DNA of 10,610 nucleotides, taken from IMG/VR virus record IMGVR_UViG_2778261697_000001; one strand, 5' to 3'. Source of the DNA: a virus. Lineage: Duplodnaviria > Heunggongvirae > Uroviricota > Caudoviricetes. This document shows, in pieces, positions 8,971-10,024 of the stretch. The first letter of the stretch is position 1, and each line of letters begins with the position of its first letter. The position numbers and the translations under genes are program-made. The notes under the pieces were generated by a model that was not told the origin of the DNA, ran no database searches, and saw only the letters and a list, made by a program, of their open reading frames with translations.

Positions 8971-9002
8971 CGCAGACACGTTGTATGCAATAACGTGCTG
9001 CG
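8971..9002 (-). terminator. Stem-loop A, 24 nt downstream of the GIY-YIG stop; candidate intrinsic terminator and copy 1 of a hairpin repeat
   Basis: GCAG-a-CACGTT-[gtatgcaat]-AACGTG-CTGC with a flanking C-G pair. On the minus strand it is followed by GTTTTCAACTCC. Confidence 0.4.
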
Positions 9003-9025
9003 GTTTAATCTTATCAATTGAATAC

Positions 9026-9799
9026 TCAAAAATTAGGTGAGTAACGGACCGGGGACATAGCTCCTTTTTTTCTTAATTCATCTGGTATTTTTTTTCCAAG
9101 ATAAAGATTTGCTATTTCAGGTGGGGCTTCTCGACCTTCAAAACCATAGCGAGAACTTTGTGTTGCCTCAAAGTCAGGATCCTCGTCCCAGTATTTCATC
9201 GTAGGGAAATTTTCACGTGTTGATTTGAGCCATTTATCAGCAATAAAAACCCCTCGAACGATGCCCCTTACAGTGGCAAGAATGACTTCTGCTTGACTGG
9301 CGCGCGAGGCATTGATGCGCCAGCTAAATCGAACCGCATCATAAAGCTCTGAATCCTTTGCACTTCTGTTAACGGAAATCATTAATGCTTTATGATGAAA
9401 TGTTATGCTTTCGGGTTGATATGTTGCTATCAATTCTTTGACATGCGCGGCGCCGAATTCATTGCTGCCAGCACCATTCATGATATTCGTTAACCCAGGG
9501 TAGGCATCAATAAGTGCTGCTTCAACTTCGTACGCCGTCTTTTCATCAGTCATTCCATGTCGATGGATGACATGGATAACTTCAAGTCCCGCTAATCTTA
9601 TTTCTCTGATTTGCTTTAGCTTGTTGCTCAGTAACTCGTCATCATCAGCCGCTGCCACTTCACCGCGCATATGGGCAAATACGCGGTTACCTTTGCCTTT
9701 CCCTACATAGAAGGTGCTTCCGTCCCTAGGATCAATCAATCGGTATACATACCAGCCAAGGTGTTCAATTACTCCAGAAGGAAACTCAGTAATATCCAT
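9026..9799 (-). CDS. GIY-YIG family nuclease with uncharacterised C-terminal domain of about 140 aa
   Basis: Clear GIY-YIG core: GWYVYRL (GIY), FYVGKGKG (YIG), NRVFAH (Arg), YEVEAALID (Glu) and LTNIMNG (Asn). I do not recognise the C-terminal half. Start uncertain: the ATG at 9799 fits a putative promoter at 9832-9860, while the ORF track uses a TTG at 9850. Confidence 0.8.
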
Positions 9800-9831
9800 T
9801 TTGCAATATCTGTGAATTATTTGTGAGACGT

Positions 9832-9860
9832 ATATTAATGAACATTGCAAGGGCTCACAA
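9832..9860 (-). promoter_or_regulatory. Putative sigma70-type promoter for the GIY-YIG gene
   Basis: On the minus strand: -35 TTGTGA, 17-nt spacer, -10 TAATAT, about 30 nt upstream of the ATG at 9799. Pattern match only. Confidence 0.2.
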
Positions 9861-9990
9861 CTAGTAGTGTTGAGAAAGCCATCGGGAAAATGAGGCTAAC
9901 CCTTTGAATTTACATAGCGCAAAAAGATACCTTTCCTCATAATGTGAGCTAATTTTATGTTTCGTTTGATGATCGGGTCGGTCTCGAAAC

Positions 9991-10024
9991 CCGTAGCCAC
10001 GTCGTATGCAAGAACGTGCTACGG
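9991..10024 (-). repeat. Stem-loop B, copy 2 of the hairpin repeat, upstream of the GIY-YIG gene
   Basis: GTAG-c-CACGT-[cgtatgcaaga]-ACGTG-CTAC with two flanking C-G pairs. Homologous to stem-loop A; the outer stem carries a compensatory C-G to T-A change. Confidence 0.4.

Follow-up and report, generated by a model that had tools for sequence, protein, structure and literature searches.

The window analysed in this work is a stretch of 10,610 nt from a Caudoviricetes virus (IMG/VR record IMGVR_UViG_2778261697_000001), where two homologous stem-loops (copies A and B) flank a gene for a protein with a GIY-YIG nuclease domain. Judged by its profile matches, the flanked gene is the known single-gene anti-phage defence system PD-T4-3. 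We consider it fairly probable that the stem-loops represent a conserved structure of the late-operon end that serves as a homologous-recombination linker for cargo cassettes. According to this explanation, both stem-loops would be alleles of one non-coding element of lambdoid and e14/SfV-type temperate phages. The element occupies the 3' end of the late (tail-fibre) operon, past the stop codon of the last late gene (tfa, a tail-fibre gene, or pin) and before attP/int. Accessory genes (moron, lysogenic-conversion, and anti-phage defence genes) would build up between the late operon and att, nearly all of those seen being on the opposite strand. The element appears to be the only sequence that otherwise unrelated phages have in common at that position, and it would therefore act as a short linker for homologous recombination. 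Crossovers within the element would insert, delete, or exchange cargo, with Red/RecET/Erf-type recombinases, which tolerate short diverged homology, as plausible catalysts. The expected outcome would be a gene bracketed by two non-identical copies of the element, which in the window is PD-T4-3. The features on which this explanation is based are listed below.

8964..9008, plus strand: hairpin copy A, the stop-proximal copy of the flanked gene (direct repeat, fold, and covariance-model match of 59.1 bits, E = 9e-12)
9985..10029, plus strand: hairpin copy B, the att-proximal copy (direct repeat and covariance-model match of 62 bits, E = 1.7e-12)
10027..10137, plus strand: conserved non-coding extension past the distal copy (shared right-flank types and RNAalifold; also in HK97, lambda, and the K-12 fossil)
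9026..9799, minus strand: PD-T4-3 anti-phage defence protein with LEM-3-like GIY-YIG nuclease domain, 257 aa (PADLOC, Pfam, and RefSeq)

The two hairpins of the window

The repeat search of the window aligned positions 8971-9005 with positions 9992-10026 without gaps at 86% identity over 35 nt. The original prediction, which was made from the sequence alone, placed two homologous stem-loops in direct orientation at these positions, and the repeat search agrees with it. The homology holds, while the estimate of about 80% identity over about 40 nt is replaced by the measured figure. The gene stop (9026-9028) lies 23 nt from copy A and the ATG (9799) lies 191 nt from copy B, close to the 24 nt and about 190 nt given before.

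The outer stem of copy A runs from C8971-G9002 to G8975-C8998 and is followed by the bulged A8976. The inner stem runs from C8977-G8997 to T8982-A8992 and closes the loop GTATGCAAT. Copy B consists of CCGTAG-c-CACGT / ACGTG-CTACGG at 9990-10024. The stems of both copies can be prolonged by AAA(C) ... (G)TTT, which corresponds to the 'GGTT core' noticed before. The second outer pair is C8973-G9000 in copy A and T-A in copy B, a change with pairing kept that was described in the original prediction and can be read directly from the sequence. It is simply a difference between two common alleles of the hairpin.

The degenerate 23-nt core of the hairpin matches the window twice where 0.00 matches are expected from 200 shuffles, and chance similarity is thus excluded. 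Copy A has an RNA fold of -20.5 kcal/mol (z = -4.6). Copy B has an RNA fold of -16.2 kcal/mol (z = -0.7 in a 55-nt context), which is unremarkable in energy alone, so the case for copy B rests on conservation. The left edge of copy A carries a TGA at 8965-8967 within 'TTGAAAAC', and compared with the pinE ends of loci L003 and L004 and with HK97 it looks like a degenerate 3' end of a pin invertase gene. Some 10 nt before hairpin A, at 8947-8954, eight G form a slippage-prone tract in non-coding DNA whose length varies among close relatives, strain LD91-1 (L252) having one G fewer.

Structure and covariation of the hairpin family

The covariance model was built from 18 variants (45 positions and 14 pairs). 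Applied to the window, to ten annotated loci, and to 89 IMG/VR viral contigs, the model identified 112 copies, and a second batch gave more. A search of this kind was proposed together with the original prediction. The hairpin recurs at gene boundaries and stands beside unrelated genes.

The 38 distinct natural variants exhibit standard pairs in 89.6% of cells and two-sided changes at 5 of the 14 pairs. The second outer pair is C-G in 26 of these sequences, U-A in 7, and U-G in 3. In the alignment used for covariation, which was fitted to the model and is hence biased toward the structure, the covariation score is 0.162 against 0.100 +/- 0.008 for shuffled alignments; none of 500 shuffles reaches 0.162 and the slid controls are far lower. 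An independent MAFFT/RNAalifold run with longer sequences produced the same helix and the same double changes. The copies of HK633 and of the K-12 fossil keep the pairing with quite different stem sequences. The earlier claim that pairing is maintained by two-sided change is therefore upheld, as the covariation exceeds all shuffles and all slid controls. The hairpins are genuine, and their structure is constrained.

The inner stem and loop, CACGT-CGTATGCAAGA-ACGTG, are nearly invariant among 34 variants. The hairpin core has 12-14 bp and the loop has 9-11 nt. The bulge after the outer stem is a single A, C, G, or T, or is absent. Mismatches in the core are G.U in nine cases and A.C in six, counts from which the functional strand is not callable. 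HK633 alone has two U.G pairs, which favours the plus strand.

Behind most att-proximal copies, and also behind copy B, comes a conserved extension of 65-150 nt that is non-coding (GGCTGGTGAACTTCCGATAGTGCGAGTATTGAATGATTTCCAGCCGTTACCGATTTTACG). The core of the extension in the window reaches GATTTTACG at 10078-10086, and its continuation to about 10137 is homologous to the ea47-ea31 spacer of lambda. A continuation like this spacer is frequent among the extensions. A second stem (GGCTGG/CCAGCC) with weak covariation was predicted in the extension by RNAalifold. Rfam 15 yields no match to either hairpin at E <= 10, except for a sub-threshold overlap with CssrB of 17.8 bits (gathering score 76).

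Each reading frame across the hairpin and extension is open in 17 of the 38 variants at most. RefSeq carries pseudo-fragments named 'capsid protein' or 'nucleocapsid protein' and 45-aa hypothetical proteins over this region (L005 7411-7491; L008 3959-4096), and two mechanical open reading frames (ORFs) of the window, 8701-8967 (+) and 9861-10148 (-), also overlap it. Because no frame is conserved, both the annotations and the window ORFs are very likely spurious. A 9-codon ORF from the ATG of the loop was considered and rejected, as copy A and lambda copy 1 lack it.

Distribution and genomic position of the element

The 44-nt hairpin query matched 12,252 places in 5,177 of 5,426 complete Escherichia coli genomes, with a median of 2 and a maximum of 9 per genome. 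The hairpin together with the first part of the extension was identified in 193 phage records that include HK97, lambda, mEp460, phiP27, many Stx phages, and Salmonella phage ES18. The megablast search with window 8600-10230 gave matches in 970 of the 5,426 E. coli genomes. A pattern scan of 596 Gb of contigs specified only 15 bases and is loose, with abundant chance matches; Shigella, E. coli, and lambda-contaminated contigs are among the matches listed.

The lambda b region is 99.8-100% identical to six short contigs (L152, L153, L155, L173, L176, and L177; 579-1,802 nt). The assemblies of these contigs are labelled Bradyrhizobium frederickii, Pseudoxanthomonas (two species), Streptomyces tropicalis, Tardiphaga robiniae, and Kitasatospora papulosa. 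Coverage of about 0.8-2.1x is given in the names of three of them. The lambda-like contigs in those assemblies are lambda DNA contamination.

The hairpin in UPEC957C and O157:H7 begins at the TGA stop of pinE. Lambda has copy 1 just past the tfa stop (about 22,570) and copy 2 between ea47 and ea31 (about 24,160), and ea47 is thus bracketed by hairpin copies as the GIY-YIG gene is in the window. The element in HK97 follows a 3' remnant of pin downstream of tfa, and 65 conserved nt lead from it to the annotated sib / attP core. The element in HK633 and ES18 follows the last tail-fibre gene and precedes attP-int, the ES18 copy being degenerate. In K-12, a hairpin copy is found close to the right end of Rac. 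Wherever annotated loci were read, the hairpin and the tail genes point in one direction, and the hairpin often occurs again on the far side of a cargo gene. It lies 0-75 nt past the stops of minus-strand cargo genes and directly past the stops of plus-strand pin, tfa, or tail-fibre genes. In 12 loci, the genes annotated next to the element are tail genes, pin serine invertases, several types of phage integrases, IS1, and host genes. All inspected copies are located in the tail-distal regions of prophages or at one fossil prophage end. The element is an ordinary component of lambdoid prophages and is not special to the PD-T4-3 gene.

The fixed position and the conserved pairing suggest that the late operon ends in a structural element of RNA or DNA. 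Our best guess for its role in the phage is a stem-loop that would form RNA 3' ends or act as an insulator where the late operon converges with the cargo or leftward transcripts, rather than a canonical intrinsic terminator.

The fossil prophage end is found in the core genome of E. coli between ykgJ and ecpE (L255 4220-4312; NC_000913 about 304,220-304,312), where a fossil hairpin and extension are followed by a dinI-like remnant. The ykgJ-ecpE segment with the fossil hairpin is contiguous in at least 4,951 of the 5,426 genomes. The fossil copy of MG1655 keeps the loop with one change, and its stem differs yet is complementary (GCGGTAC/GTACCGC). This copy, which may have been co-opted, is situated downstream of the final gene of the ecp fimbrial operon. 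In the GenBank record of HK633, the homologous phage segment is labelled 'attP' for its likeness to the K-12 segment, which is probably an over-interpretation.

Cassette boundaries and crossovers at the element

Homology to the window starts exactly at 8965/8967 in more than 900 E. coli genomes, where the left neighbour is usually the pinE invertase gene. Homology on the right ends at 9993-9996, 10009, 10066, or 10174-10176. The 109 copies with complete flanks exhibit 19 left-flank types and 16 right-flank types in 35 combinations, with pin ends, tfa ends, and upstream regions of cargo among those on the left. The cargo bracketed by hairpins comprises PD-T4-3 (1,021-nt spacing), an S-adenosylmethionine (SAM) methyltransferase (1,049-nt spacing, more than 13 loci), lambda ea47 (1,589-nt spacing), a peptidase (about 1,600-nt spacing), PD-T4-3 with an EcoRII-like restriction-modification system (4.2 kb), and a methyltransferase with a diguanylate cyclase.

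An empty site was identified in the IMG/VR contig L044, which has the order pinE-hairpin-extension-SIR2. Homology to the pinE locus ends at 2686 of this contig and window-type homology of 99.1% begins at 2648, and the overlap of both consists of the hairpin only. The hairpin of L044 has a pin-type 5' arm and a B-type 3' arm, which is the expected product of a crossover between A and B in a pinE-A-PD-T4-3-B arrangement. Copy A of O157 is the reciprocal kind of chimera, in which the pin-type 5' arm CCGTAG faces the A-type 3' arm CTGCGG and gives a T.G pair. In terms of deduplicated adjusted mutual information, the left flank is associated with the 5' arm at 0.49 against 0.11 with the 3' arm, and the right flank is associated with the 3' arm at 0.32 against 0.08 with the 5' arm. 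The arms are linked to the flanks adjacent to them but not to those on the far side. The breakpoints, the flanks, and L044 place the hairpins at cassette boundaries, an original suggestion that is correct in substance, while the likeness to attC suggested with it does not hold.

The upstream end of the PD-T4-3 cassette is marked by the following feature.

9980..9989, plus strand: 'ggtctcgaaa', tRNA-Ser-like att remnant (the same point in O157:H7 enters a tRNA 3' half)

In O157:H7 (L004 6013-6075), the PD-T4-3 cassette leads into a tRNA 3' half that has a long variable arm and ends in CCA. We take this attR-like remnant to be tRNA-Ser-like in view of the sequence of E. coli tRNA-Ser. The upstream end of the cassette always has 'GGTC(G/C)GGTCTCGAAA(A)CC' (window 9980-9989; L004; L251 about 6010-6030). 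The join in the window consists of the tRNA-Ser-like attR remnant (GGTCTCGAAAACCG) and the left edge of hairpin B (TGAAACCG), which have the microhomology GAAACCG. A phage that integrates at a tRNA gene appears to be the source of the PD-T4-3 cassette, which would have been acquired from its att end.

Weighing of the explanations

The linker explanation proposes that recombination within the element would be the cause of the shuffling of cassettes and that enzymes of the Red/RecET/Erf type may perform it. The recombination role appears to be on firmer ground than the RNA role, as it draws on the comparative evidence and on two precedents. One precedent is lambda Red, which performs relaxed homologous recombination with defective prophages in the stf/tfa region via short, diverged homology (PMC3945230). 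The other is the promoter/stem-loop cassettes (PeSLs) of T4-type phages, by which cargo is shuffled, with chimeric elements at empty sites and a crossover that has been mapped inside the loop (PMC2839356).

Several points weigh against the linker explanation. A pure linker role leaves the near-invariant loop unexplained, and what the hairpin does for the phage is a matter of guesswork. Templated repair in palindromes can give compensatory changes without selection, and the mismatch counts do not separate an RNA role from the role of a DNA palindrome. Many right-hand boundaries lie outside the hairpin, for example at the end of the extension immediately after GATTTTACG. The junction between the PD-T4-3 cassette and hairpin B, as read from its sequence, looks like a microhomology (illegitimate) join. 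Hairpins do not part every cargo gene, and none is present at lambda ea31-ea59 or at the acyltransferase gene of the window. Any conserved island amid variable cargo would also coincide with homology boundaries, whatever the mechanism of recombination.

The hairpins might instead be only terminators or stabilisers of mRNA 3' ends that work in both directions between convergent units and have no special recombination role. The late operon or pin would be transcribed on the plus strand, the cargo or the leftward pL/pI transcripts would be on the minus strand, and each moron would have brought or kept the structure. This is unlikely on balance. It agrees with the positions of the hairpin relative to minus-strand cargo stops and plus-strand late-gene stops, with stable stems of -16 to -20 kcal/mol, with the conserved pairing, with the symmetric AAACC...GGTTT frame that resembles weak bidirectional terminators, and with the TTTTC that follows copy A on the minus strand. 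However, the intrinsic-terminator scan of 8400-10300 gave 0 sites, a result that lends no support to the paired terminators suggested originally and also counts against the RNA-end role in the linker explanation, and the loop is 9-11 nt long. The plus-strand tails are GGTTGGCTGG, GGTTAGT, or GGCTGG and the minus-strand tails are GGTTTCA, GGCATAT, or GGCTTCC, with no U-tract that is common to the family. None of the listed flank types has a consistent T-run past the stem on either strand, the best case being the TTTTC after copy A on the minus strand. Late and pL transcription of lambda are antiterminated, which also counts against termination. An invariant loop is not required for a terminator, and the chimeric arms and the linkage between arms and flanks are left unexplained. 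Another explanation, to which we give a small chance, is that the hairpin and extension are no passive stretch of homology but form a dedicated, selected lambdoid module whose invariant loop is recognised by a specific factor. The factor could be a recombination protein that steers cassette capture and excision to one safe site, as a lambdoid counterpart of PeSLs or attC, or it could be one by which RNA polymerase under Q or N antitermination is stopped or reset where the late operon ends.

The hairpin could also be a true site-specific recombination site in the manner of lox, dif, an att core, or attC that is served by a phage- or host-encoded recombinase, which would bind the two inverted arms, exchange strands in the invariant asymmetric spacer, and so capture and release cassettes. 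It does have inverted arms of 11-13 bp around a nearly invariant, asymmetric centre of 9-11 nt, its arms change symmetrically as would be expected for two identical half-sites, linkage breaks between the arms, the 3' flank GTTAGCT/GTTGGCT fits the attC R' core GTTRRRY at 6 of 7 positions, and the HK633 record labels the segment attP. We nevertheless regard this as very improbable. No cognate recombinase travels along, and the neighbours are serine invertases, integrases of the lambda, P22, and Sf6 types, or none. The attP sites of lambda and HK97 are several hundred to several thousand nt away. Breakpoints also occur beyond the spacer, whose length exceeds the 6-8 bp that are usual. The HK633 annotation implies that the hairpin is an att core whose attB lies between ykgJ and ecpE, and this was rejected, since the supposed attB of K-12 is a fixed fossil prophage end with a dinI-like remnant that is contiguous in the great majority of genomes (at least 4,951 of 5,426). 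The action of the pin invertase on the hairpin was rejected as well, since the adjacent invertase crosses over at pix sites of another type (CTTCTCCCAAACCAACGTTT), whose AAACC likeness is minimal. That the hairpins are recognition or cleavage sites of the PD-T4-3 GIY-YIG nuclease, in a homing-like or self-regulatory manner, is hardly conceivable, although the original prediction had listed a nuclease site among its possibilities. Adjacency in the window is the only point for it. The hairpin is found in 5,177 genomes against matches to the gene region in 970, and in phages without any match to the gene region, also in lambda, HK97, and ES18. The relative with the empty site (L044) has one hairpin and no nuclease gene. 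Unrelated genes are flanked, and because the hairpin follows pin or tfa and flanks methyltransferase, ea47, peptidase, and restriction-modification cargo, the link to the nuclease was dropped. This distribution, which is wide and shows no association with the gene family, is the one that the original prediction itself had named as evidence against its proposals, and it rules out a recognition site.

Comparison with known systems

The best reading of the element, by comparison, is that it would be analogous to the PeSLs of T4-type phages and would be neither attC-like nor a nuclease target. PeSLs (promoter-early stem-loops) are likewise short conserved intergenic stem-loop elements that form direct repeats around non-essential cargo in hyperplastic regions, and homologous recombination over patches of <50-100 bp has been proposed for them (Arbiol, Comeau et al. 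2010, PMC2839356). Relatives differ by the presence or absence of a cassette, with a single chimeric element at the empty site, and the same is seen in the family of the window. The element differs from PeSLs in several respects. PeSLs carry a strong sigma-70 promoter, while the consensus scan identified none in or next to either window copy or the extension. PeSLs are experimentally proven terminators, while termination is not predicted for the window element. PeSLs occur in dozens of copies in virulent T4-type phages, while the lambdoid element occurs in one to few copies per temperate genome at a fixed position at the late-operon end or b region. There is no sequence similarity between PeSLs and the lambdoid element.

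Morons and the lambda b region (the concept of Juhala and Hendrix, with serotype-conversion and effector loci) are known as exchangeable cargo downstream of the tail-fibre genes. The cargo described here occupies the same place between the tail-fibre genes and attP/attR and also consists of independently expressed accessory genes, which in the window are those of the acyltransferase, PD-T4-3, and SIR2 proteins, with stem-loop bracketing. Accretion of morons was proposed without conserved flanks, each moron having its own promoter and terminator, while the lambdoid stem-loops are homologous copies across unrelated phages.

Like an attC site, the hairpin is imperfectly palindromic, stands at the 3' end of a cassette gene, has a single extrahelical base and a 3' flank that contains GTT, and goes with cassette presence/absence polymorphism. 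The attC-like reading in the original prediction fails on the lack of an integron integrase, on the nearly invariant loop, and on the bulge. No IntI integrase, attI, or Pc accompanies the hairpin (no integron integrase is annotated in the 12 loci). The loop sequence of the hairpin is conserved, while attC sites conserve structure only. The attC core is RYYYAAC ... GTTRRRY, of which the 5' flank of the hairpin matches only AAC and the 3' flank matches 6 of 7 positions. The extrahelical bases of attC are fixed, while the bulge of the hairpin is variable or absent. The cargo keeps about 190 nt of its own upstream region, and some cargo genes have no hairpin.

Repetitive extragenic palindromes and bacterial interspersed mosaic elements (REP/BIME) are also repeated GC-rich extragenic hairpins just past stop codons, with possible protection of mRNA 3' ends. 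The hairpin has a median of 2 and a maximum of 9 copies per genome against hundreds of core-genome copies of REP/BIME. The loci that were read place it in tail-distal parts of prophages or at one fossil end, and it has its own consensus and a fixed orientation to the late genes.

The lambda sib/tI retroregulator is a conserved b-region hairpin near attP as well, and sib acts on transcripts that cross att. It lies 65-170 nt from the element in HK97 and in a lambda-att prophage. The sequence of sib is distinct, sib is located between the element and the att core, and sib has a clear U-tract on the leftward strand, which the element does not have.

The flanked gene and the prophage cargo region of the window

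The window is the tail end of an e14/SfV-like prophage with a Mu-type tail. Gene bounds and annotation were taken from RefSeq for the identical locus in E. coli EJN001 (L001). The tail-side genes are those of a DNA circularization protein and the baseplate, ymfQ, stfP, and tfa. Beyond them, accessory genes for an acyltransferase, the LEM-3-like GIY-YIG protein, and a SIR2 protein lie on the opposite strand, and the hairpins are thus located within a cargo and defence region of the prophage. The other features of this region are listed below.

7407..8474, minus strand: acyltransferase (Acyl_transf_3) cargo gene (Pfam PF01757, E = 1.7e-24, and RefSeq annotation)
9800..9979, minus strand: non-coding region upstream of PD-T4-3 that travels with the gene (conserved with the gene in every context seen)
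10211..10230, minus strand: last 20 nt of a SIR2/ThsA-like defence gene, cut by IS1 (intact in L002 9612-12422)
10231..10610, plus strand: partial IS1 that leaves the window end and truncates the cargo region (L001 annotation, IS1A transposase 15686-16383, and sequence)

The GIY-YIG protein matches the PADLOC profile of PD-T4-3 with E = 9.3e-140 (residues 1-256 of 257 and profile positions 1-255 of 256), and its domain matches Pfam PF22945 with E = 2.7e-14. The consensus scan identified no promoter upstream of the gene (9800..9979), and a promoter is presumed. The PD-T4-3 cassette was identified in at least four backgrounds, namely the e14 type with the acyltransferase gene, the O157 Sp1 type, an ssrA lambda-type siphovirus, and a tRNA-Pro prophage. 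The cassette in the O157 Sp1-type background is accompanied by pinE and ends in the tRNA-like attR. In ssrA-integrated lambda-type prophages (L042 9016-13230; L251 5060-8916), PD-T4-3 adjoins an EcoRII-like restriction-modification pair that consists of a Dcm-type methyltransferase of 491 aa and an endonuclease of 404 aa. PD-T4-3 and this pair lie within one hairpin pair in L042 and form a two-system defence cassette.

The SIR2 protein matches the ThsA profile of PADLOC with E = 4e-29, and its gene is whole in an untruncated relative, strain a15 (L002 9612-12422). The source genome has IS1 copies at L001 5030-5727 and 15686-16383 on both sides of the prophage remnant, which suggests that an IS1-mediated deletion removed the remaining prophage and the neighbouring chromosome. 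A 19-nt inverted repeat (TAGGGCTGCTATGTGCCAA / TTGACAGAGAGCAGCCCTA, 84% complementary) is present at 10152-10198 just downstream of the SIR2 stop on the minus strand, and a plus-strand T-run follows it at 10203-10209. This repeat may be the SIR2 gene's own terminator, unrelated to the hairpin family.

The segment 7195-7260 right after the tfa stop has no copy of the hairpin family. It has a different stem-loop, aaagcctcgcaa-tggt-ttgcaaggcttt, that resembles the sequence immediately left of sib in lambda and in lambda-att prophages. Possibly an older att-proximal region left this stem-loop behind, and the acyltransferase gene lies beyond it.

Novelty and implications

No description of the element was found in the searchable full-text literature, including a search with the loop sequence, which does not cover the older lambda literature, where a prior description is possible. 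The element is not annotated in the records of lambda, HK97, and ES18 that were read, and HK633 has only the 'attP' label. The element thus appears to be undescribed so far.

The recurrent spurious annotations of 'capsid protein' and small hypothetical proteins are accounted for by the element. It is also a candidate for the 3' end of the late operon, which is still poorly defined. E. coli owes much of its accessory load (defence, O-antigen modification, and effectors) to lambda-like prophages, and much of this load is located between the tail-fibre genes and the attachment site. The element is a practical landmark for cargo and defence cassettes in lambdoid prophages. If the element were a dedicated module, this would explain the free exchange of defence and virulence cargo among unrelated enterobacterial temperate phages. 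As a linker, the element offers a concrete and testable mechanism by which cassettes may move between unrelated phages.

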